From Escherichia phage vB_EcoM_G2540, in sequence record MK327936.1: a stretch of 64,000 nucleotides of DNA. The stretch is one strand, 5' to 3'. A model generated the notes under the pieces. That model had not been told where the DNA came from. It saw only the letters and a program-made list of their open reading frames with translations, and ran no database searches. A program made the position numbers and the translations under genes. Numbering within the stretch: position 1 is the stretch's first letter; each line of letters opens with the position of its first letter. Of this stretch, positions 45,496 through 57,479 are shown piece by piece.

Positions 45496-48400
45496 ATGGC
45501 CGAGATTAAAAGAAAGTTCAGAGCAGAAGATGGTCTGGACGCAGGTGGCGATAAAATAATCAACGTAGCTTTAGCTGACCGTACCGTAGGAACTGACGGT
45601 GTTAACGTTGATTACTTAATTCAAGAAAACACAGTTCAGCAATATGATCCAACTCGTGGATATTTAAAAGATTTTGTAATCATTTATAATAATCGTTTTT
45701 GGGCAGCAACGGATAATATTCCAAAACCTGCTGGAAATTTTAATAGAATTCGTTGGAAAGCATTACGTACTGATGCCGTATATACAACCGTATCATCTGG
45801 ACCATATCAATTAAAATCCGGAGAAGCAATTTCAGTAGATACATCAGTTGGCAATGACATTGAGTTTACTTTACCACCTTCTCCGCTTGATGGAGAAACC
45901 GTAATAATTCAAGATATCGGTGGAAAACCTGGCATAAATCAGGTTAAAATAAATTCTTCAAATCAGAGTATTGTCAATTTTAGAGGTGAACAGGTACGTT
46001 CAGTTTTAATGACTCATCCAAAGTCACAGATGATATTCATTTTTAATAATCGTTTGTGGCAAATGTATGTTGCTGATTATAGCAGAGAAGCTGCGATTGT
46101 TACTCCATCGACTGCGTATCAAGCACAATCTAATGATTTTATCGTACGTAGATTTACTTCTGCTGCACCAATTAATGTTAAACTTCCGAGATTTGCTAAT
46201 CATGGCGATATTATTAATTTCGTTGATTTAGATAAACTGAATCCACTTTATCATACAATTGTTACTACATACGATGAAACGACTTCAGTACAAGAAGTTG
46301 GAACTCATTCCATTGAAGGCCGTACATCGATTGACGGTTTCTTGATGTTTGACGATAATGAGAAATTGTGGAGATTGTTTGACGGGGATAGTAAAGCACG
46401 TTTACGCATTATAACAACTAATTCAAATATTCGTCCAAATGAAGAAGTCATGGTATTTGGCGCGAATAATGGAACAACCCAAACAATTGAACTTCAGCTT
46501 CCGACTGATATTTCTGTTGGTGATACTGTTAAAATTTCCATGAATTACATGAGAAAAGGACAAACAGTTAAAATCAAAGCTGCTGGTGAAGATAAAATTG
46601 CTTCTTCAGTTCAATTGCTGCAATTCCCAAAACGTTCAGAATATCCGCCTGAAGCTGAATGGGTAACAGTTCAAGAATTAGTTTTTAATGGTGAAACTAA
46701 TTATGTACCAGTTTTGCAACTTGCTTATATAGAAGATTCTGATGGAAAATACTGGGTTGTACAGCAAAACGTTCCAACAGTTGAAAGAGTCGATTCTTTA
46801 AATAATTCTACTAGAGCAAGATTAGGCGTAATTGCTTTAGCTACACAAGCTCAAGCAAATGCTGATTTAGAAAATTCTCCACAAAAAGAATTAGCAATTA
46901 CTCCAGAAACGTTAGCTAATCGTACTGCTACTGAAACTCGCAGAGGTATTGCAAGAATAGCAACTACTGCTCAAGTAAATCAGAACACCACATTCTCTTT
47001 TGCAGATGACCTTATCATCACTCCTAAAAAGCTGAATGAAAGAACTGCTACAGAAACTCGTAGAGGTGTTGCTGAAATTGCTACGCAGCAGGAAACTAAT
47101 ACAGGTATCGATGATACTACAATCATCACTCCTAAAAAGCTTCAAGCTCGTCAAGGTTCTGAAACATTATCGGGTATTGTAACTTTTGTATCTACTGCAG
47201 GAGCTACTCCAGCTTCTAGTCGTGAATTAAATGGTACAAATGTTTATAATAAAAACACTAATAATTTAGTTGTTTCACCTAAAGCTTTGGATCAGTATAA
47301 AGCTACTCCAACGCAACAAGGCGCAGTAATTTTAGCAGTTGAAAGTGAAGTAATTGCTGGACAAAGCCAAGAAGGATGGGCAAATGCGGTTGTAACACCA
47401 GAAACGTTACATAAAAAGACATCAACTGATGGAAGAATTGGTTTAATTGAAATTGCTACGCAAAGCGAAGTTAATACAGGAACTGATTATACTCGCGCAG
47501 TCACTCCTAAAACTTTAAATGACCGTAGAGCAACTGAAAGTTTAAGTGGTATAGCTGAAATTGCTACGCAAGTTGAATTCGACGCAGGCGTCGACGATAC
47601 TCGTATCTCTACACCATTAAAAATTAAAACCAGATTTAATAGTACTGATCGTACTTCTGTTGTTGCTCTATCTGGATTAGTTGAATCAGGAACTCTCTGG
47701 GACCATTATACCCTTAATATTCTTGAAGCAAATGAGACACAGCGTGGTACACTTCGTGTAGCTACACAAGTTGAAGCTGCTGCAGGAACATTGGATAATG
47801 TTCTAATAACTCCTAAAAAGCTTTTAGGTACTAAATCTACTGAAGCACAGGAAGGCGTTATTAAAGTTGCAACTCGGTCTGAAACTGTAGCTGGAACGTC
47901 AGCAAATACTGCTGTATCTCCAAAAAATTTAAAATGGATTGTGCAGAGTGAACCTACTTGGGCAGCGACTACTGCGATAAGAGGTTTTGTTAAAACTTCG
48001 TCTGGTTCAATTACATTCGTTGGTAATGATACAGCTGGTTCAACACAGCCATTAGAATCATATGAGAAAAATGGTTATGCAGTATCACCATATGAATTAA
48101 ATCGCGTATTAGCAAATTATTTGCCATTAAAAGCAAAAGCCGTAGATAGTAATTTATTAGATGGTCTAGATTCGCTCCAGTTCATTCGTAGGGACATTGC
48201 ACAAACAGTTAATGGTTCACTAACCTTAACCCAACAAACGAATCTGAGTGCCCCTCTTGTATCATCTAGTACTGCTACATTCGGTGGATCAGTTTCAGCA
48301 AATAGTACATTAACTATTTCTAATACTGGAACGGCAACTCGTCTGATTTTTGAGAAAGGACCTCAAACTGGAACAAACCCGGCTCAAACGATGACAGTCA

Positions 48401-49365
48401 GAGTGTGGGGAAATCAATTTAGCGGGGAATCAGACACAACACGTTCTACCGTATTTGAAGTTAGTGATGAAACGTCTAGTCATTTTTATTCTCAGCGTAA
48501 TAAAGCTGGAAATATAACATTTAATATCAACGGTACAGTAACACCGATAAATGTTAATGCTTCAGGAACATTGAATGCAAATGGTGTAGCAACATTTGGT
48601 AATTCAGTCACTGCAACTGGTGAAATTATTTCTCGAAGCGCAAATGCTTTCCGTGCTATTAACGGAAATTATGGTTTCATTGTTCGCAATGATGGATCAG
48701 TAACGAATTTTATGCTTACTGCATCGGGTGATCAGACTGGTGGATTTAATGGATTACGTCCAGTATCAATTAATAATCAATCTGGTCAGGTTACAATTGG
48801 TGAAAGCTTAATCATTGCAAAAGGTGCTACTATAAGTTCAGGCGGTTTAACTGTTAACTCGAGAATTCGTTCTCAAGGTACTAAAACTTCTGATTTATAC
48901 ACTCGCGCACCAACATCTGATACAGTAGGATTCTGGTCAATTGATATTAATGATTCAGCCACTTATAATCAATTCCCTGGTTATTTTAAAATGGTTGAAA
49001 AAACTAATGAAGTGACTGGTCTTCCATATTTAGAACGTGGCGAAGAAGTTAAATCTCCTGGTACATTGACTCAGTTTGGTAACACACTTGATTCACTTTA
49101 CCAAGATTGGATTACTTATCCAACGACCCCAGAAGCACGTACCACTCGCTGGACACGTACATGGCAGAAAACCAAAAACTCTTGGTCAAGTTTTGTTCAG
49201 GTATTTGACGGAGGTAACCCTCCTCAACCTTCAGATATAGGAGCGATCCCATCTGATAATGGAATAATAGGTAATCTTACTATTCGCGATTTCTTGCGAA
49301 TTGGTAATGTTCGCATTATTCCTGACCCAGTGAATAAAACTGTTAAATTTGAGTGGATTGAATAA
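45496..49365 (+). CDS. 34: Long tail fibre proximal subunit gp34
   Basis: 1289 aa as T4 gp34; internal ITP(K/E)xL...ATQ repeats; first gene of the fibre operon. Confidence 0.9.
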   Translation: MAEIKRKFRAEDGLDAGGDKIINVALADRTVGTDGVNVDYLIQENTVQQYDPTRGYLKDFVIIYNNRFWAATDNIPKPAGNFNRIRWKALRTDAVYTTVSSGPYQLKSGEAISVDTSVGNDIEFTLPPSPLDGETVIIQDIGGKPGINQVKINSSNQSIVNFRGEQVRSVLMTHPKSQMIFIFNNRLWQMYVADYSREAAIVTPSTAYQAQSNDFIVRRFTSAAPINVKLPRFANHGDIINFVDLDKLNPLYHTIVTTYDETTSVQEVGTHSIEGRTSIDGFLMFDDNEKLWRLFDGDSKARLRIITTNSNIRPNEEVMVFGANNGTTQTIELQLPTDISVGDTVKISMNYMRKGQTVKIKAAGEDKIASSVQLLQFPKRSEYPPEAEWVTVQELVFNGETNYVPVLQLAYIEDSDGKYWVVQQNVPTVERVDSLNNSTRARLGVIALATQAQANADLENSPQKELAITPETLANRTATETRRGIARIATTAQVNQNTTFSFADDLIITPKKLNERTATETRRGVAEIATQQETNTGIDDTTIITPKKLQARQGSETLSGIVTFVSTAGATPASSRELNGTNVYNKNTNNLVVSPKALDQYKATPTQQGAVILAVESEVIAGQSQEGWANAVVTPETLHKKTSTDGRIGLIEIATQSEVNTGTDYTRAVTPKTLNDRRATESLSGIAEIATQVEFDAGVDDTRISTPLKIKTRFNSTDRTSVVALSGLVESGTLWDHYTLNILEANETQRGTLRVATQVEAAAGTLDNVLITPKKLLGTKSTEAQEGVIKVATRSETVAGTSANTAVSPKNLKWIVQSEPTWAATTAIRGFVKTSSGSITFVGNDTAGSTQPLESYEKNGYAVSPYELNRVLANYLPLKAKAVDSNLLDGLDSLQFIRRDIAQTVNGSLTLTQQTNLSAPLVSSSTATFGGSVSANSTLTISNTGTATRLIFEKGPQTGTNPAQTMTVRVWGNQFSGESDTTRSTVFEVSDETSSHFYSQRNKAGNITFNINGTVTPINVNASGTLNANGVATFGNSVTATGEIISRSANAFRAINGNYGFIVRNDGSVTNFMLTASGDQTGGFNGLRPVSINNQSGQVTIGESLIIAKGATISSGGLTVNSRIRSQGTKTSDLYTRAPTSDTVGFWSIDINDSATYNQFPGYFKMVEKTNEVTGLPYLERGEEVKSPGTLTQFGNTLDSLYQDWITYPTTPEARTTRWTRTWQKTKNSWSSFVQVFDGGNPPQPSDIGAIPSDNGIIGNLTIRDFLRIGNVRIIPDPVNKTVKFEWIE

Positions 49366-49373
49366 GAGGTATT

Positions 49374-50489
49374 ATGGAAAAATTTATGGCAGAGTTTGGA
49401 CAAGGATATGTCCAAACGCCATTTTTATCGGAAAGCAATTCAGTAAGATATAAAATAAGCATAGCGGGTTCTTGCCCGCTTTCTACTGCGGGGCCATATG
49501 TTAAATTTCAGGATAATCCCGTTGGAAATCAAACATTTAGTGCAGGTCTTCATTTAAGAGTTTTTGACCCTTCTACGGGAGCATTAGTTGATAGCAAGTC
49601 ATATGCTTTTTCTGCTTCAAACAATACAACATCTGCCGCTTTTGTTAGTTTCATGAATTCTTTGTCAAACAATAGACTTGTTGCTATATTAACTAGCGGA
49701 AAGGTTAATTTTCCTCCTGAAGTGGTATCTTGGTTAAGGGGAGCAGGAACTTCAGTTTTTCCATCAGATTCAGTATTGTCAAGATTTGACGTATCATATG
49801 CTGCTTTTTATACTTCTTCTAAAAGAGCTATTGCATTAGAGCATGTTAAACTAAGTAATAGAAAAAGCACAGATGATTATCAAACTATTTTAGATGTTGT
49901 ATTTGATAGTTTAGAAGACGTCGGAGCGACAGGATTTCCAAAAAGAACTTATGAAAGTGTCGAGCAATTCATGTCAGCAGTTGGTGGAACTAATAACGAA
50001 ATTGCGCGATTGCCAACTTCAGCTGCTATAAGTAAACTTTCTGACTATAATTTAATTCCTGGTGATGTTCTTTATCTTAAAGCACAGTTATATGCTGATG
50101 CTGATTTACTTGATCTTGGAACTACAAACATATCCATTCGTTTTTATGATGCATCAAATGGATATATTTCCTCGACCCAAGCTGAGTTTACTGGGCAAGC
50201 TGGGTCTTGGGAATTAAAAGAAGACTATGTAGTTGTTCCAGAAAACGCCGTAGGATTTACGATATATGCACAAAGAACTGCTCAAGCAGGTCAAGGCGGC
50301 ATGAGAAATTTAAGTTTTTCTGAAGTATCAAGAAATGGCGGCATTTCAAAACCTGCCGAATTTGGCGTCAACGGTATTCGCGTTAATTATGTCTGTGAAT
50401 CGGCTTCACCTCCAGATATAATGGTACTTCCTACACAAGCCTCTTCTAAAACTGGCAAAGTGTTTGGACAGGAATTTAGAGAAGTTTAA
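49374..50489 (+). CDS. 35: Long tail fibre hinge connector gp35
   Basis: 371 aa (T4 gp35 372 aa); synteny. Confidence 0.85.
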   Translation: MEKFMAEFGQGYVQTPFLSESNSVRYKISIAGSCPLSTAGPYVKFQDNPVGNQTFSAGLHLRVFDPSTGALVDSKSYAFSASNNTTSAAFVSFMNSLSNNRLVAILTSGKVNFPPEVVSWLRGAGTSVFPSDSVLSRFDVSYAAFYTSSKRAIALEHVKLSNRKSTDDYQTILDVVFDSLEDVGATGFPKRTYESVEQFMSAVGGTNNEIARLPTSAAISKLSDYNLIPGDVLYLKAQLYADADLLDLGTTNISIRFYDASNGYISSTQAEFTGQAGSWELKEDYVVVPENAVGFTIYAQRTAQAGQGGMRNLSFSEVSRNGGISKPAEFGVNGIRVNYVCESASPPDIMVLPTQASSKTGKVFGQEFREV

Positions 50490-50494
50490 ACTGA

Positions 50495-50520
50495 GGGAGC
50501 CTTCGGGTTCCCTTTTTCTT
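50495..50520 (+). terminator. Rho-independent terminator/attenuator after gene 35
   Basis: GGGAGCC-TTCG-GGTTCCC hairpin followed by TTTTTCTT. Confidence 0.6.
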
Positions 50521-50528
50521 TATAAATA
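50521..50528 (+). promoter_or_regulatory. T4 late promoter (TATAAATA) for gene 36
   Basis: Exact TATAAATA 24 nt upstream of the gene 36 ATG. Confidence 0.65.
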
Positions 50529-50551
50529 ATATTAAAATAAAGGGGCATATA

Positions 50552-51202
50552 ATGGCTGATTTAAAAGTAGGTTCAACTGTAGGTGGATCTGTCATTTGGC
50601 ATCAAGGAAATTTTCCATTGAATTCAGCCGGTGACGATGTACTCTACAAATCATTTAAAATATATTCAGAATATAATAAACCGCAGGCAGCTGATAACGA
50701 TTTCGTTTCTAAAGCTAATGGTGGTACTTACACCGGTCCAATTACTATTAATTACGGGGTAAATAGTTATCTTCAATTAAGTAATAATGAAACCCCCATC
50801 CGAATTCGTTCTGGTGGCGGCACTGGTAATACTCTTGTAGTTGGTGGCTCTTCTGGCGGTATTAGTTTTAGACCAGCAGGTAGTGAAATCACTACTGGAC
50901 AAATTACTATTACGCCAGAAGGTTTGACAACATTTACCAAAGCTGTAACGGCTCCATCTGTAACTGTTACATCTACTCCTTCCGCAGCATCTGATGTTAC
51001 TCGCAAAGATTATGTTGATGGAGCAATAAATACTGTTACAGCAAATGCAAACTCTAGGGTATTACGCTCTGGAGACACTATGACAGGAAATTTAACTGCG
51101 CCAAACCTTTTTTCACAGAATCCTGCATCTCAACCTTCACACGTTCCACGATTTGACCAAATCGTAATTAAGGATTCTGTTCAAGATTTCGGCTATTATT
51201 AA
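50552..51202 (+). CDS. 36: Long tail fibre distal connector gp36
   Basis: 216 aa (T4 gp36 221 aa); synteny. Confidence 0.85.
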
Positions 51203-51210
51203 GAGGACTT

Positions 51211-54159
51211 ATGGCTACTTTAAAACAAATACAATTTAAAAGAAGCAAAACTGCAGGTCAACGTCCTGCTGCTTCAGTATTAGCCGAAGGTGAATTGGCT
51301 ATAAACTTAAAAGATAAAACAATTTTCACAAAAGATGACTCAGGCAGTGTTATAGAATTAGGTTTAAAATATGGAGGAACAATTGATGGTTCTTTAACTG
51401 TTAATGGAAATATAATTGGAAATTTAACAGGTAACGCTGCAACTGCAACGAAATTAAAAACAGCACGAAAAATTAATGGTATATCCTTTGATGGGTCAAA
51501 AGATATCACGCTAACTCCATCTGACATAAATGTCAATAGCACAACGTTTATAAAAAATAATGGCGAATTACCTGTTGATGCTAATTTAGATACGTATGGG
51601 CCTGTTGAAGAATATCTTGGAGTTTGGTCGAAAGCAACTTCAACCAACGCTCAACCAGCAAATAAATTTCCAGAAGAAAATGCTGTAGGTGTGCTAGAAG
51701 TATTTGTGGCCGGTCAATTTGCTGGTACTCAGAGATATACAACTAGATACGGAAATGTTTATATTCGTTCCTTGACTGCTACATGGAACGGAGTAAATGG
51801 TCCGTGGAGTGTGTGGCGAAATATTCAATCCGGTACTCGTCCACTGTCAACAACAATTGATCTTAATGATCTAGGAGGCGCTGAACACTTTGGTTTGTGG
51901 CGAAATAGTTCAAATTCCATTGCTACCTTTGACAGAAATTTCCCAGAAGAGGGGTCGTCAGCTCAAGGTCTTTTGGAAGTATATGAAGGTGGAAACTATT
52001 CTCGTACACAAAGATATACAACCAGATTTGGTGTTGTATATACTCGTTGTCTTGCTGCCGCGTGGGATGCTTCCGCGCCTAAATGGGGACCGTGGCAACA
52101 AGTCGGTAATGTCACACCAGCGACTTTCTATGACGGAGATCTGAATGATTTTAAAACCCCTGGGTTATATAATATTTTAGGCACTGATGCCGTTATTAAC
52201 TGTCCTACAGGTGAAGGTTTGCCGACTGTTATTGTTGGTTTGCTGGAAGTTAAACAACGTGCTTCTGGCGGTGCTATTTTCCAAAAATTTACTACTGCCG
52301 GAACGGGTGCAACTACTCGCGATCGTATTTTTGAGCGTGCATATACTGGTGGTGTGTGGGGTGCATGGAACGAAGTATATACATCTTACTCTCTGCCAAT
52401 TACTTTAGGTATGGGTGGTATTAAAACTCAATTAGCGGAGCTAGATTGGCAAACATTTGATTTTGTTCCTGGTAGTATGTTTAGCGTTCCTTTGAACAAA
52501 ATAAAGAACATGCCAGCTAATATGAATTGGGGCACGATTGACGGAAACTTAATTATGTTTTCTGTTGGTCCTAGCGAGCACACCAGCACAGGACGTACTG
52601 TTCAGGTTTGGCGTGGAACTGTATCCCAGACAAACTATCGTTATTTTGTCGTTCGTGTGTTCGGTAATTCTGGAAATAGAACTTGCACAGTTCGCCGTGT
52701 TGTTCTTGAAGATGGATCACATACTTGGACTGCTCAACAAAACTTTAGGGGATTGTTGAATATCACTGCTGCTGTTAATCTTGGTGCTAATCAGAAAATT
52801 TCACTTGCTCCAGGAGCATATATTCAAGCCCCTGCTAGCGGTTCTGGTTCTAATACTTACGCGAATCAGAATACTACCATTGCACCATTATATCAGGCCA
52901 TTGACGATTCAAATAAAAACCAGTTTGCGCCAATTGTTAAACAGAAAAACACTGTAACAAATATTACTATGGCTTCTGGTATGGATATTGCTAGTTCAGA
53001 ATATCGTATCGTTGCTCAGGGTGATTTATCCGCTACTGGAACTACAGCCACTAAATTAGCTACATGGCGTTTCTTGCCGTCTGGCCGATTCATGTCACAA
53101 AGCCGAGTTTATGCTGGCGCAGCATTCTTGAACACTGATGGTAACATTGCTGGTTCAATCTGGAAGAAATACAACGATGCAACCAATTTAGATGCTGCCT
53201 TGAATACTCGCCTAGGTAAAGGCGGTGATACGATGACAGGTCGGTTAACAATCAATGCACCTAATGATTCTATCGTATTATCAACAACTGCTAGTAATTC
53301 TTTGCATATTCGCGGTGACATAGACGGGACTGGTAACTGGTATATTGGCAAGGGTGGTGCTGATAATTCGCTAGCATTTTATAGCTATGCTACTCAGGCG
53401 GCAGTACATATCACAAACAATGGTGAGATTTCGCTAAATCCACAAAATATCGCAATGGTTAACGTTAACCGCGATCGTGTACACATTAACGGTTCTGGAT
53501 GGATTGCTAGACAACCGGGTGATTGGGGCAACCAATGGCGAGTAGAAGCTCCATTATTCGTCGATCATGGTTATGTTTCACAGGATTGTTATTATCCAAT
53601 TATTAAAGGAAGAAGTGTAATCACCAATCAAGGGTTTGTAACTGCCGTCGATCTTGGTATTCGTCGTGTCCCTAACAATTGGGGGCAAGCAATTATTCGT
53701 GTTGGATCTGCAGAGGCATCGCCAGCGGCTGAACACCCTAACGCGGTATTTGAATTTCATTACGACGGTACTTTCTATTCTCCTGGTAATGGTAACTTTA
53801 ACGATGTGTATATTCGTTCCGATGGTCGTCTTAAGATTAATAAAAAAGAGCTAGAAAACGGAGCACTTGAAAAAGTATGTCGACTGAAAGTTTATATTTA
53901 CGATAAAGTTAAGTCTATTAAAGACCGTAGTGTTATTAAACGTGAAGTTGGTATTATTGCTCAGGACCTTGAAAAGGAATTACCGGAAGCTGTATCTAAA
54001 GTTGAAGTTGATGGATCTGATGTTCTGACAATTTCTAACTCTGCTGTGAATGCTCTTTTAATTAAGGCTATTCAGGAAATGAGTGAAGAAATTAAAGAAT
54101 TGAAAACGCCTCTCTTTACTAAAATTGCTCGCAAAATTAGTAAATATTTTAAATTCTAA
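51211..54159 (+). CDS. 37: Long tail fibre distal subunit gp37 (T2-type, with C-terminal chaperone-like segment)
   Basis: 982 aa (T4 gp37 is 1026 aa); conserved N-terminus; C-terminus ...[13 protein letters not shown]...[14 protein letters not shown]... resembles intramolecular chaperone domains. Confidence 0.85.
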
Positions 54160-54164
54160 CAACA

Positions 54165-54185
54165 AGGGGGAAATGCCCCCTTTGG
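54165..54185 (+). terminator. Weak hairpin after gene 37 (possible attenuator)
   Basis: GGGGG-AAATG-CCCCC hairpin followed by TTTGG. Confidence 0.3.
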
Positions 54186-54195
54186 AGTATAAATT

Positions 54196-54975
54196 ATGGC
54201 AGTAGTTGGTGTTCCTGGTTGGATTGGAAGTTCAGCCGCAAATGAAACAGGACAGCGCTGGATGAGTCAAGCGGCTGGTCAATTAAGATTGGGTGTTCCT
54301 TGCTGGATGAGTCAATTTGCAGGTCGCTCACGAGAAATTATTCACACGCTTGGAGCAGACCATAACTTCAATGGTCAATGGTTCCGAGATAGATGTTTTG
54401 AGGCAGGTAGTGCACCTATAGTGTTTAATATCACCGGAAATTTAGTATCATATAGTAAAGATGTTCCTTTATTCTTTATGTACGGCGATACGCCAAATGA
54501 ATATGTTACTTTGAATATTCATGGTGGAGTTCATATGTGGGGACGAGGTGGTAACGGTACTGTAAACGGAAACCCAGGCACAAATGGCGGCGATGTAATC
54601 CAAAATGATATCGGCGGAAGACTTCGTATTTGGAACTATGGCGTTATTGCATCAGGCGGTGGCGGTGGCGGTGCAGTGTCATTACAGAATAGCTGGGCGC
54701 CAAATGCTACAGCAGGTGGCGGCGGTGGTAGACCATTTGGCATCGGCGGTGGCGGCGTTAATTGGCCAGGTGGTAATGCTAGTTATGACGCGCCTGGTGG
54801 TGCCGGTTACACTTCCCAATTCGGCGGTGGTAATGGTGGCGATGCTGGGGGTCGGGGCGGAGATGGATGGGGTAATCACTTATCTAGATCTGGCGGTGGT
54901 GCTCCTGGCAGAGCAGTATTCGGAAGTTCACCGTCATGGGGTGCTACAGGCACAATCTACGGCTCCTGGATTTAA
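54196..54975 (+). CDS. 38: Receptor-recognising adhesin gp38, T2/T6 type with glycine-rich motifs
   Basis: 259 aa; N-terminus [14 protein letters not shown]...; polyglycine motifs (GGGGGG, GGGGG, GIGGGG) separating variable segments. Confidence 0.85.
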
Positions 54976-54994
54976 ACGATAATACCCTCTCAAT

Positions 54995-55002
54995 TATAAA
55001 TA
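54995..55002 (+). promoter_or_regulatory. T4 late promoter (TATAAATA) for holin t
   Basis: Exact TATAAATA 20 nt upstream of the t ATG. Confidence 0.6.
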
Positions 55003-55021
55003 TTGATAAATGGGAGGTAAT

Positions 55022-55681
55022 ATGGCAGCACCAAAAGTATCATTTTCGCCTAGTGATATTTTATTTGGGTTGCTAGACCGCATTTTCAAAGATAACGCCT
55101 CTGGAAATATTCTTATTTCCAGAGTTGCTGTTGTAGTTCTTTTGTTCCTAATGGCACTAATATGGTACAAAGGGAATATTTTTATGGATTATTACGTGAG
55201 GTCGAAATATGATACTTACACAGAAGTAATTCAAAAAGAAAGAAATACACGATTTGAATCTGCGGCTTTAGAACAACTACAAATAGTCCACGTCACATCA
55301 AGGGCGGATTTTAGTTCGGTGTATTCTTTCAGACCTAAAAATCTAAATTATTTCGTCGACCTTATTGCGTATGAAGGTAAGTTACCTAGCACAGTAACTG
55401 AAAAATCTATGGGAGGATTTCCTGTCGATAAAACGACAGCAGAATATTCGGTCCATTTAAGTGGACTTCACTTTACTTCTAAAACAGATTTTGCTTTCTT
55501 ACCTACCAAAACAAAAACTCCGGAACTGGCATATATGTATAGTTGTCCTTACTTCAATTTGGATAACATATATGCTGGAACTGTTTCTATGTATTGGTAT
55601 AAGGGGTCGGATGTGTTAAATGAAGAACGCTTGGTTGCAATATGCAACCAAGCTGCAAGGATATTAGGGCGGGCTAAATAA
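55022..55681 (+). CDS. t: Holin T
   Basis: 219 aa from ATG 55022 (GGGAGG SD); single N-terminal TM helix and large periplasmic domain; follows gene 38. Confidence 0.85.
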   Translation: MAAPKVSFSPSDILFGLLDRIFKDNASGNILISRVAVVVLLFLMALIWYKGNIFMDYYVRSKYDTYTEVIQKERNTRFESAALEQLQIVHVTSRADFSSVYSFRPKNLNYFVDLIAYEGKLPSTVTEKSMGGFPVDKTTAEYSVHLSGLHFTSKTDFAFLPTKTKTPELAYMYSCPYFNLDNIYAGTVSMYWYKGSDVLNEERLVAICNQAARILGRAK

Positions 55682-55954
55682 TTAGTTGTTAGAATACATC
55701 GTCAAATGGCGATAAATATTTTCAAAACCTTCATTGAATTCACTAATCAGTGTTTTCTTTTCTTCGGCAGTTAAATTTGTAATTAGTTTTCTGAACGAAT
55801 TCTGATTTAGCTGTCGACCATCTTTTTTAATTCCAATCTCATTCAAGAATCCGATGAAATTTGCTCGGTCTTCAACAATATCTTCCCTCGAGAATTTAAT
55901 CAAAATAGAAGCAACAGTAATAATTTCACGTACAATTTCAATATCTTTATTCAT
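55682..55954 (-). CDS. asiA: Anti-sigma70 factor AsiA
   Basis: 90 aa as T4 AsiA; early promoter directly upstream. Confidence 0.85.
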   Translation of the reverse strand: MNKDIEIVREIITVASILIKFSREDIVEDRANFIGFLNEIGIKKDGRQLNQNSFRKLITNLTAEEKKTLISEFNEGFENIYRHLTMYSNN

Positions 55955-55988
55955 AACGTTTTATTCATTCCATTTGGTTGATACGAGT

Positions 55989-56017
55989 ATAGTACCATTA
56001 TCAGTGTTGATTGTAAA
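55989..56017 (-). promoter_or_regulatory. T4 early promoter for asiA
   Basis: minus strand: TTTACA -35, 17 bp spacer, -10 TACTAT. Confidence 0.55.
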
Positions 56018-56162
56018 CAGCTTTTTCTACACTTTTAACGTAATCAGTGTAGTCTTCCTGTTCATACGAGTGTAAGGCCAAGAACGCGGCTAATAGTTCA
56101 TTATAGACTAAAGCCTCGCGCTCACGTTCTGCCTCTACTACGTTCTGAAGATTATGGCTCAT
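56001..56162 (-). CDS. Hypothetical protein, 53 aa
   Basis: Start at ATG 56162 (MSHNLQ...) with AAGGA SD; ORF-track version extends to 56216. Confidence 0.35.
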   Translation of the reverse strand: MSHNLQNVVEAEREREALVYNELLAAFLALHSYEQEDYTDYVKSVEKAVYNQH

Positions 56163-56163
56163 A

Positions 56164-56451
56164 TCATTCCTTATAACTATCAATGTAGTCCTGTATGTCA
56201 AAGAATGACATTTCATATTCTAGGACATTAAGAGCCCGTTCTTCAGTATAGTCAGAACCAAATACGATAGTGATTTCACCAGGCTTCATATGATTGAAAT
56301 CGACACTAAAAGGAATACGAGAACATACTTCGTCTGCCATATCCGCAACAACACTACGATATACTTCTCGGTTAACCTGATAAAGCTCTGCAAGTTCTTC
56401 ACAACGAATAACAAGTTCAGTGGCAGGATTTTCTTTTATTTTAGTAAGCAT
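56164..56451 (-). CDS. Acidic small protein, possibly Arn-like
   Basis: 95 aa, strongly acidic; sits in the asiA-motA interval where T4 encodes Arn; assignment tentative. Confidence 0.35.
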   Translation of the reverse strand: MLTKIKENPATELVIRCEELAELYQVNREVYRSVVADMADEVCSRIPFSVDFNHMKPGEITIVFGSDYTEERALNVLEYEMSFFDIQDYIDSYKE

Positions 56452-56525
56452 AGTCTTTACCCTTATGTTTTTGTTTACGTTTAGATTGAAGTTCTGATTT
56501 CTTCTTGTCCTTATGGACAGAAGCC

Positions 56526-56753
56526 TTATTGAAATCGTGTTTTGCTACAAGATTGTTCATAATGATTTATAACCTCATTTAAACATTTATCGGTAAAAGA
56601 AAACTTTTTAGCCACAGAACATTCGATAATGTGTTCTTTCAAATCTTTAGAGTCAGTATAACCCATCTCAGTAATAAAGTGGCGAATTAAAGCTTTATTC
56701 TTATCATTAACAGAATTAAAATAATCTGCTTTAGAATCAATTATTCTCATCAT
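56526..56753 (-). CDS. Hypothetical protein, 75 aa
   Basis: ORF in asiA-motA block. Confidence 0.4.
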   Translation of the reverse strand: MMRIIDSKADYFNSVNDKNKALIRHFITEMGYTDSKDLKEHIIECSVAKKFSFTDKCLNEVINHYEQSCSKTRFQ

Positions 56754-57018
56754 CTAATTTCCTTAATTGATATTGCAACGAGCTAATAATTTCTTCGTTC
56801 ATTTTAATATACATGTCACGCAAGAAAGGTTTTAACCCTTCACGAATAATTGCTAACGTATCACCTTTACATAGATTGACCAAATAAGGATGGTCTAAAG
56901 CATCCCAACCCGGCTGATTAGCATACATACCATAGTTTTCTTCCATCATATGATTAAGACGTTTGATATCTTGGATACGTGATTCAATAGCATCTTTCTG
57001 GAGTTGTTTAATATTCAT
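56737..57018 (-). CDS. Hypothetical protein, 93 aa
   Basis: ORF in asiA-motA block. Confidence 0.4.
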   Translation of the reverse strand: MNIKQLQKDAIESRIQDIKRLNHMMEENYGMYANQPGWDALDHPYLVNLCKGDTLAIIREGLKPFLRDMYIKMNEEIISSLQYQLRKLDDENN

Positions 57019-57479
57019 TAGTAAAGGTCCTCAGAGTAAAGTTCTTTTTCACTACCACCACGTTCAATACGTACTTGTCCAGCGTAAGTTGCAATAATCA
57101 TTGCTTCTTCACGTGTCCAATAATTACTATATTGGTCAATAAACCCTTGGTCATCATCACAAACTTGCTGAGTAACTAATTGAGGTTTAACTACATCTAA
57201 AACTTCTGCCATGTCTTTAGAATAATGACGAGCACCTGGAATAATAAGAGTTCGTCCATCTTTTAATTTAAAACGGTTGGCTGCACAGACAATTCGTCGT
57301 TGATACTTTTGATTTTCATCCCAGTACGCAGTCTGCCAACAAATTTCAGGAACTTCTTTCAGAATATCTTCTTCTGTGCATTTATAACCATGTGCTTTAA
57401 ACTTTTGAACAAGACTTTCTGGAGTTTCACGAGATAAAGGAACATTCAGCATTTTTAAACGATTAATAAATGGGTTCAT
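57018..57479 (-). CDS. Hypothetical protein, 153 aa
   Basis: ORF in asiA-motA block; ATGA coupling. Confidence 0.45.

Follow-up and report, generated by a model that had tools for sequence, protein, structure and literature searches.

A probable inter-genus mosaic at the tail-fibre tip of Escherichia phage vB_EcoM_G2540, with a predicted OmpF-type gp38 adhesin on a Mosigvirus-like block

The distal tail-fibre genes of Escherichia phage vB_EcoM_G2540 (record MK327936.1; the window is the whole 64,000-nt stretch of DNA analysed here) are best explained together as those of a T2/T6-like Tequatrovirus fibre tip, with a self-cleaving gp37 and an OmpF-type gp38 adhesin on a Mosigvirus-derived block. 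We put the probability of this joint explanation at roughly 85%. gp37 and the attachment domain of gp38 would be of the G2540-3/T6 type, and the gp38 head, the holin gene t, asiA and four early genes would come from Mosigvirus-like phages (Table 1). The head would then have moved, alongside lysis and early regulatory genes, between two genera that modify their DNA differently, with glucosyl-HMC in Tequatrovirus and arabinosyl-HMC in Mosigvirus (PMC8594841).

How would such a tip be assembled? Trimer formation of gp37 would be aided by its own C-terminal S74 intramolecular chaperone (IMC), which, by homology to S16 and T2, would then be removed by autoproteolysis between R869 and S870. Removal of the chaperone would expose the docking face for gp38, and one gp38 monomer may dock on the exposed tip via its N-terminal domain and residues W9, W22 and W37, as deduced from S16 and T2. 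The polyglycine-sandwich head would present four hypervariable loops and bind an outer-membrane porin.

Table 1. Features of the fibre-tip locus (positions in the window)
Feature	Position	Strand	Remarks
Late promoter 5' of gene 36	50521..50528	+	T4-type, TATAAATA; same arrangement annotated in fPS-2
Gene 36	50552..51202	+	Distal hinge connector, 216 aa; Pfam Phage_T4_gp36
Gene 37	51211-54159	+	ORF, 982 aa
Gene 37, predicted mature distal half-fibre	51211..53817	+	aa 1-869, ending DVYIR; T6/G2540-3-type
Gene 37, C-terminal intramolecular chaperone	53818..54159	+	aa 870-982, 113 aa; Pfam PF13884 Peptidase_S74, E 5e-11; match to S16 gp37 6f45_A
Left junction interval	54027..54486		
GC hairpin	54167..54180		GGGGAAATGCCCCC; in the 36-nt spacer of genes 37/38; putative
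Gene 38	54196-54975	+	ORF, 259 aa; tail-fibre tip adhesin, predicted monomeric
Mosigvirus-like block	54486..57006		~2.5 kb
(GGCGGT)x3	54655..54672	+	Codes G154-G159; only true tandem repeat of gene 38; length kept in 63/66 homologues
Late promoter 5' of holin gene t	54995..55002	+	TATAAATA; equivalent site annotated in fPS-2
Holin t	55022..55681	+	Mosigvirus-type; 99-100% identity to RB69 and Bas46
asiA	55682..55954	-	Anti-sigma-70 factor; within Mosigvirus-type block
Four small early ORFs	56001..57018	-	Within block: 56001-56216, 56164-56451 (arn homologue), 56526-56753 (arn.1), 56737-57018 (arn.2)
Right junction	57006..57075		arn.2/arn.3 boundary

The sequence of gp38 places it, over its full length, in the T2/T6/S16 adhesin family. 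Its 259 aa fall in the range expected for the family (~250-270), and it is encoded 36 nt 3' of gene 37. Pfam GP38 (PF05268) matches aa 47-259 over the entire profile (1-218 of 218, E 3.8e-83), and Gp38_N (PF21721) matches aa 1-42. Sequence matches in the PDB are gp38 of PP01 (E 3e-73) and of S16 (E 2e-47). The AlphaFold2 model (pLDDT 86) superposes on the PP01 receptor-binding domain (9V85; target-normalised TM 0.92, rmsd 1.7 Å) and also on S16 gp38 (6F45_D); no other fold was matched. With the S16 tip complex (6F45) and PP01 gp38, the present tip shares the fold, a gp37 that carries an IMC, a gp38 predicted to be monomeric and the polyglycine-II sandwich (TM 0.8-0.92), but both of those phages bind OmpC, their gp38 proteins are 45% (S16) and 61-64% (PP01) identical to this one, and the loops differ. 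The chain begins with the N-terminal attachment domain, in which W9, W22 and W37 are invariant across a 12-sequence alignment; the role of these tryptophans in docking on the gp37 tip is known from the S16 structure (PMC7917993). A conserved segment (aa 49-115) follows, and then the polyglycine-sandwich C-terminal part; four hypervariable loops (~aa 160-173, 188-200, 201-209 and 223-232) are parted by glycine-rich motifs. The initial annotation, which had read gp38 as a T2/T6-type adhesin and not the ~183-aa T4 chaperone, was thus right.

The partner protein belongs to the same length class as its relatives, with 994 aa in T6 and 982 aa in G2540-3 (99.7% identity), so that the earlier description of a 'shortened' gp37 does not hold. 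Identity to T6 gp37 is 90% over aa 1-524 and 81% over aa 677-982. G2540-3, JB75 and T6 also share the gp38 attachment domain, but their gp38 heads are only ~40-50% identical from aa 110 on and their t and asiA are of the other type (~73%). The chaperone-like C-terminal segment noticed earlier was confirmed by Pfam as an S74 IMC, the Peptidase_S74 match covering aa 870-928. A cleavage motif, DVYIR^SDGRLK, lies at aa 865-875, and the cut is predicted at DVYIR869^S870; this motif has been aligned among S16 and fPS phages (PMC7917993). Against T4 gp37, identity is 79% over the N-terminal 66 aa, a central stretch aligns weakly (28%) and the rest does not align. Within gp37, a domain of ~75-95 aa is tandemly duplicated (aa 133-205 and 224-298), which BLASTP self-comparison missed and Smith-Waterman alignment with shuffling revealed.

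Where does the exchanged block begin and end? The mosaic was mapped by a 100-nt identity profile, runs of informative sites and block identities. Up to ~54027 the window is 99.4% G2540-3-like. The block itself, which contains the gp38 head, t, asiA and the four small ORFs, is 97.4-98.1% identical to Bas46, RB69, Bas47 and SQ17 and 71-78% to T4, T6, G2540-3 and fPS-2, whereas in its flanks the Mosigviruses are at ~73-81% and ordinary Tequatroviruses at 97-99%, a two-sided switch when the inside is taken as 54486-57040. On the left, 106 informative sites of G2540-3 type end at 54027 and 62 of Mosigvirus type begin at 54486, with 16 sites of mixed signal in between; this junction is resolvable only to that interval because the parental types are near-identical there. 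The interval takes in the last part of gene 37 and the first 97 codons of gene 38, a stretch conserved in all T6-type alleles. On the right, homology to G10400-type Tequatroviruses begins at ~57007. The block most likely came from RB69-like Mosigvirus phages, with homologous recombination in conserved sequence joining it at either end; for the gp38 head the direction of transfer is ambiguous, an OmpF-type head being present in both genera. The mosaic module that had been proposed for 51211-54975 is real as to the locus, but its extent was misjudged, the inter-genus block (~54486-57006) running on over t and asiA as far as the arn region. Two Tequatroviruses offer partial parallels. Bas38 (AugustSocin) has the same Mosigvirus-type t-asiA-arn block and the same right junction, but its Mosigvirus-like sequence reaches left through another gp38 N-terminus and a 1082-aa gp37. 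fPS-2 has the same chimeric gp38 (95.6% nucleotide identity), but the similarity does not continue past the gene 38 stop codon. The locus is a clean natural case of modular exchange.

Which receptor would this tip recognise? From residue 50 to residue 259, gp38 has the same sequence as RB69 gp38; RB51 has this head too, and 257 of the 259 residues are shared with Bas46. Bas46 uses OmpF and the LPS deep core (PMC8594841 supplement), and RB69 and RB51 are OmpF-dependent (PMC3157838; bioRxiv 10.64898/2026.04.02.716166). From the head identity to RB69 and the near-identity to Bas46, OmpF is therefore predicted as the primary receptor, unlike T6, whose receptor is Tsx. The same head type occurs in fPS-2, FL33 and Bas47, all OmpF users. 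Glycine motifs, hypervariable loops and the glutamine at the OmpF/OmpW switch are likewise shared with RB69, RB51 and Bas46: Q208 aligns with RB51 Q206, where replacement by L redirects binding to OmpW, and a single gp38 loop substitution (RB68 Q206L) can switch the porin (both bioRxiv 10.64898/2026.04.02.716166). The differences from these three phages are that the N-terminal 48 aa of the present gp38 are of the T6/G2540-3 type and that the partner gp37 has 982 aa here and 1073-1103 aa there. At the DNA level their gene 38 is 94.7-96.4% identical to this one, with almost all differences silent; the codons differing from Bas46 are 26 synonymous and 2 non-synonymous, therefore indicating strong purifying selection. 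OmpF may be only part of the receptor requirement, since such loop substitutions can change the porin and FhuA and LPS-core dependence has also been described for RB69 and RB51 (Trojet et al., PMC3157838). That specificity is set by the variable segments of gp38, as claimed at the outset, agrees with published work. Being able to name OmpF from sequence as the predicted primary receptor, perhaps together with a need for the LPS core, is useful for cocktail design and for anticipating resistance.

Several other explanations have to be weighed. Could gp38 act chiefly as a chaperone of gp37 assembly, as its T4 counterpart does, with specificity residing in gp37? Several database records label close homologues 'long tail fiber assembly catalyst/chaperone', but the idea is scarcely credible: the full-length alignment to T4 gp38 that the initial annotation named as its own refuting test was not obtained, BLASTP giving no similarity (best E = 2.1 over 12 residues), and gp37 brings an IMC chaperone of its own. 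Moreover, the C-terminal needle tip of T4 gp37 was not found in gp37, whose sole matching PDB chain is S16 gp37 (6f45_A) and which closely resembles the T4 protein only in its N-terminal 66 aa, and the S16 and PP01 gp38 structures together with gp38 swaps show that the porin is set by the adhesin. A different objection is that the mosaic is an assembly artefact, in which reads from a Tequatrovirus and a Mosigvirus present together were merged across conserved stretches. Both junctions do lie in stretches that are near-identical between the two lineages, the exact combination occurs in no phage-collection record (the best matches cover just 88% of 51211-54975), and the gene-position index has no entry for this exact gp38 product. 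Such a misjoin is nevertheless very unlikely, since Bas38, a plaque-purified Tequatrovirus, changes from Mosigvirus-type to Tequatrovirus-type at this right junction too (57036-57075), a T6-type gp38 N-terminus is likewise fused to an OmpF-type head in two cultured Tequatroviruses (fPS-2 and FL33), every reading frame is intact, and the block is ~2% different from all Mosigvirus records and hence no copy of a known genome.

What, then, of the glycine codons? Glycine makes up 65 of the 259 residues of gp38 (35% within aa 110-259), 53 of the 65 glycine codons are GGT or GGC, and local GC in gene 38 reaches 52% on a background of ~35%. On this composition the initial annotation was correct, but not in taking the glycine codon runs (54650-54900) for likely sites of slippage, nor in placing recombination there, the junction lying upstream of them. 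A stronger version, in which the GGC/GGT runs are themselves active hotspots where recombination or slippage made this allele and drives host-range change, is unlikely. In its favour, recombination at or near conserved glycine-rich motifs has been proposed in print (Tetart 1998, as cited in PMC3157838 and PMC12032242), one engineered swap replaced gp38 only from HVS2 on, and across eight OmpF-type alleles glycine codons carry an excess of silent changes (30/52 polymorphic vs 10/33 of the other four-fold codons; Fisher p = 0.016), with short silent haplotype patches that vary between phages (codons 153-160 as in Bas47, codons 209-223 as in Bas46). However, that enrichment is modest and fits plain neutrality at unconstrained third positions, the junction interval sits 5' of the first glycine motif (~54541), and exchanges favour the conserved flanks of the specificity domain (Trojet et al., PMC3157838). 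Poly-Gly run lengths are the same in 63-65 of 66 homologues while length varies in each of the four hypervariable segments; indels among the 66 fall in these segments, leaving slippage unsupported as a source of length diversity, and close relatives show a single indel, a duplicated SR in one hypervariable loop of SQ17, outside the glycine runs. A tandem-repeat search of gene 38 returned only the 18-nt (GGCGGT)3, its one microsatellite, and a 15-nt chance repeat; apparent direct-repeat families proved to be merely GGY-rich motifs, 66-88% alike. It is also conceivable, if rather improbable, that ~54486-57006 is a host-adaptation cassette exchanged recurrently between the genera (adhesin head, holin, anti-sigma factor and arn anti-restriction region), with the right crossover fixed, as in Bas38, and the left one variable within the conserved first third of gene 38. 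In that case the surplus of silent GGC/GGT changes within poly-Gly runs could have been left by frequent short-patch conversion accompanying the exchanges.

The preferred reading, a T2/T6-like tip with an OmpF-type head, leaves the T-even host-range picture unchanged, an adhesin-type tip being textbook biology. It had been implied that a T2-type gp38 is odd in a T4-like backbone, which is not the case: the adhesin type is the predominant form in T4-type phages (Trojet et al. 2011, PMC3157838), and gene 38 is matched by 429 phage records. The representative of the gp38 cluster, P0001, sits at one end of a contig with gene sizes like those of Bas46/RB69 (e.g. a 210-aa MotA) and adds nothing on the junctions.

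Genes 37 and 38 are flanked by 34, 35 and 36 on the upstream side and by t and asiA on the downstream side. A terminator-like hairpin (50493-50514) precedes the gene 36 late promoter, which is likely the start of a 36-37-38 late transcript. The ribosome-binding site of gene 38, GGAG, comes after the hairpin in the 37/38 spacer. An Rfam scan of the entire window gave 0 matches. Two ORFs overlapping gene 38 (54605-54982, plus strand; 54682-54879, minus strand) were dismissed as artefacts of stop-poor, G-rich sequence. For holin t, the listed ORF begins at 55010, but the ATG at 55022 (MAAPK..., with GGAGG before it), giving 219 aa, is probably the true start.

On sequence comparison, the fibre locus reads as some 2.5 kb of Mosigvirus-type sequence set as a block in a Tequatrovirus resembling G2540-3 and G10400. 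The rest of the window shows 95-97% identity to many T2/T6-group Tequatroviruses and about 92% to T4 over genes 34-36, and a nucleotide search returned 58 phage records with 80% coverage or more of the 37-38 region. The mosaic was mapped with a 100-nt identity profile against eight relatives and with informative-site analyses. The window is of G2540-3 type up to ~54027 (106 consecutive informative sites; 99.4% identity over 49000-54339), follows the Mosigviruses Bas46, RB69, Bas47 and SQ17 from 54486 (97.4-98.1% over 54486-57040) and returns to Tequatrovirus type between 57006 and 57075, to the right of which its identity is 96.8% with T6 as with fPS-2; with G10400, starting at ~57007, it is 98.5%. 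Ordinary Tequatroviruses (T4, T6, G2540-3, fPS-2) drop to 71-78% identity within the block, and Mosigviruses to 73-81% to the left of the block and ~73% to its right. The block carries the receptor-binding two-thirds of gene 38, the holin gene t, asiA and four small early ORFs including an arn homologue, and so reaches ~2 kb past the host-range module that the initial annotation had drawn at 51211-54975. Its t and asiA are 99-100% identical to those of Mosigvirus relatives, and the nearest records to 55022-56450 are all RB69/PhAPEC2-type phages, FL31 being the closest (99.2%). The left junction resolves to 54027-54486, an interval covering the last part of gene 37 and the first 97 codons of gene 38, and no finer because the parental types are nearly identical there. 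Could the mosaic be an assembly chimera? This is unlikely, as the right junction recurs in a plaque-purified isolate, the Tequatrovirus Bas38, whose own change of type falls at 57036-57075, and the gp38 of two further cultured Tequatroviruses, fPS-2 and FL33, likewise joins a T6-type N-terminus to a head of OmpF type, the C-terminal receptor-binding part as in RB69 and Bas46. A search of the phage collection did not turn up this exact combination, so the locus counts as a new recombinant of known type.

The distal-fibre cluster has the canonical T-even arrangement in the ORF list, which agrees exactly with the coordinates and lengths first assigned to genes 37 and 38; holin t (+ strand) and asiA (- strand) follow downstream. 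From the positions of the T4-type late promoters, genes 36-37-38 probably form one late transcript and t probably has its own promoter. The holin ORF as mechanically listed spans 55010-55681 (223 aa), and its start is probably the ATG 12 nt further on, at 55022, which is preceded by GGAGG and yields the 219-aa product (MAAPK...) annotated in Bas46 and Bas38. Genes 37 and 38 are separated by a 36-nt spacer with a GC hairpin, GGGGAAATGCCCCC, at 54167-54180, immediately 5' of the gene 38 ribosome-binding site, and the stretch bearing it (54100-54199) is 100% identical in G2540-3 and in Bas46. An Rfam scan of the whole 64-kb window gave zero families at gathering score. Search matches place td, nrdA and nrdB within the window, and no group I intron was detected in the 64 kb.

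Genes and late promoters of the distal-fibre cluster (window positions)
Feature	Position	Strand	Product or motif
gene 34	45496-49365	+	1289 aa
gene 35	49374-50489	+	371 aa
gene 36	50552-51202	+	216 aa
gene 37	51211-54159	+	982 aa
gene 38	54196-54975	+	259 aa
T4-type late promoter	45454		TATAAATA
T4-type late promoter	50521		TATAAATA
T4-type late promoter	54995		TATAAATA

What kind of protein is gp38? It fully covers the Pfam GP38 adhesin profile (E 3.8e-83), also matches Gp38_N, and has sequence matches to the two gp38 adhesins of solved structure, S16 6F45_D (E 2e-47) and the receptor-binding domain of PP01, 9V85 (E 3e-73); BLASTP against T4 gp38 found no similarity (E = 2.1). An AlphaFold2 model built with 66 homologues as input (mean pLDDT 86.3, pTM 0.80) superposes on 9V85 with a target-normalised TM of 0.92 (rmsd 1.7 Å) and on 6F45_D with a TM of about 0.8, and a structure search with it reached significance only for these gp38 adhesin folds. 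The T2-type adhesin seen by the initial annotation is thus confirmed. Its presence on a T4-like backbone, the headline there, is the normal condition, since 429 phage records match gene 38 and the adhesin type predominates in the T4 superfamily, with T4 the exception (Trojet et al., PMC3157838). In the alignment of 66 gp38 sequences, identity over the N-terminal 48 aa is uncoupled from that of the loops: N-termini that are 100% identical occur with loops of 0-30% identity in some homologues, and N-termini of 54% identity with loops of 79-100% in others. The pattern is that of the known modular design, in which the attachment domain tracks the gp37 tip and the head tracks the receptor. Bp7 gp38 (P0006) is 100% identical to that of the window through aa 222 and 0-11% identical in the last loop and C-terminus; it could be a chimera with a glycine-motif breakpoint, or the record could hold a frameshift. 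The initial annotation was accurate in observation and essentially right in kind in an interpretation that is well-established biology, except for a shortened gp37 and glycine-run hotspots; the present analysis adds the recombinant structure, a predicted OmpF specificity and a predicted gp37 processing site.

The prediction of OmpF as the best-supported receptor comes from the near-identity of gp38 to that of Bas46 (257/259 residues) and its identity to RB69 gp38 over residues 50-259, together with OmpF use by relatives. For Bas46 the primary receptor is given as OmpF and the terminal one as the LPS deep core (PMC8594841 supplement), and Bas47 is dependent on OmpF. OmpF and LPS are used by fPS-2 and fPS-90 (PMC7917993), dependence on OmpF, with TolC having a minor effect, is reported for FL33 and FL34 (PMC12032242), and RB69 and RB51 need OmpF, also FhuA and a full-length LPS core (Trojet et al., PMC3157838). 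In the OmpF-specific RB51 the single change Q206L gives OmpW specificity (bioRxiv 10.64898/2026.04.02.716166); the aligned position in the window's gp38 is Q208. Codon differences from Bas46 gp38 are 26 synonymous and 2 non-synonymous, which places the head under strong purifying selection.

Are the glycine-codon runs hotspots of recombination or slippage, as had been proposed? An existing hypothesis places recombination at or near glycine-rich motifs (Tetart et al. 1998, as cited in PMC3157838 and PMC12032242). The 259-aa gp38 has 65 glycines and is 35% Gly over residues 110-259, which explains the rise in GC content from ~35% to 52% across 54500-55000; GGT and GGC together account for 53 of the 65 codons. 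The left junction, however, lies upstream of the first glycine motif (~54541), in agreement with the preference of exchanges for conserved sequences flanking the specificity domain (Trojet et al., PMC3157838). The sole tandem repeat in gene 38 is an 18-nt (GGCGGT)x3 at 54655-54672. Length is kept in SGGGGGG in 63/66 homologues, in GGGGG in 65/66 and in the 210-222 segment in 64/66, whereas the lengths of the four hypervariable segments run from 7-9 residues at the shortest to 15-17 at the longest. Among close OmpF-type alleles the only length change is that of SQ17 gp38 (record L012, 4501-5286), whose last hypervariable loop has SRSR in place of SR through a 6-nt duplication. Nearly invariant runs and an indel confined to a loop argue that length-changing slippage is no visible source of diversity and that the runs are structurally constrained. 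So the hotspot proposal was not borne out. Silent variation is enriched in glycine codons: among eight OmpF-type alleles 30/52 are polymorphic against 10/33 other four-fold codons (Fisher p = 0.016), glycine accounts for 12 of the 16 head codons differing from Bas46, and the codon pattern of the (GGY)6 run differs in almost every phage. Short-patch conversion would fit this excess, the silent GGC/GGT haplotype patches in the eight near-identical heads being short and phage-specific (54655-54900, codons 153-223), but plain neutrality at unconstrained sites fits equally well, and the enrichment is therefore not decisive.

The C-terminus of gp37 aligns with S16 gp37 (6F45_A) and contains a Peptidase_S74 intramolecular chaperone (aa 870-928). 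Its motif DVYIR869^S870DGRLK is the one aligned to the S16 cleavage site by Salem et al. (PMC7917993), and processing is predicted to give a mature subunit of 869 aa and a discarded 113-aa chaperone. Likeness to T4 gp37 is limited to the N-terminal 66 aa (79%) and a weakly similar central stretch, and neither that comparison nor a PDB sequence search found a T4-type needle tip. The protein is not shortened: G2540-3 gp37, 99.7% identical, also has 982 aa, and T6 gp37 has 994 aa and is 90% identical across aa 1-524 and 81% identical across aa 677-982. Lengths elsewhere are 1026 aa (T4), 1341 aa (T2), 1103 aa (RB51 and RB69) and 1073 aa (Bas46). Within gp37, a domain of ~75-95 aa is tandemly duplicated (aa 133-205 and 224-298; window 51607-52104); BLASTP of gp37 against itself did not pick it up, but its Smith-Waterman score of 159 stands at z = 26.7 against shuffles, and a third, degenerate copy is possible at aa 341-389 (z = 3).
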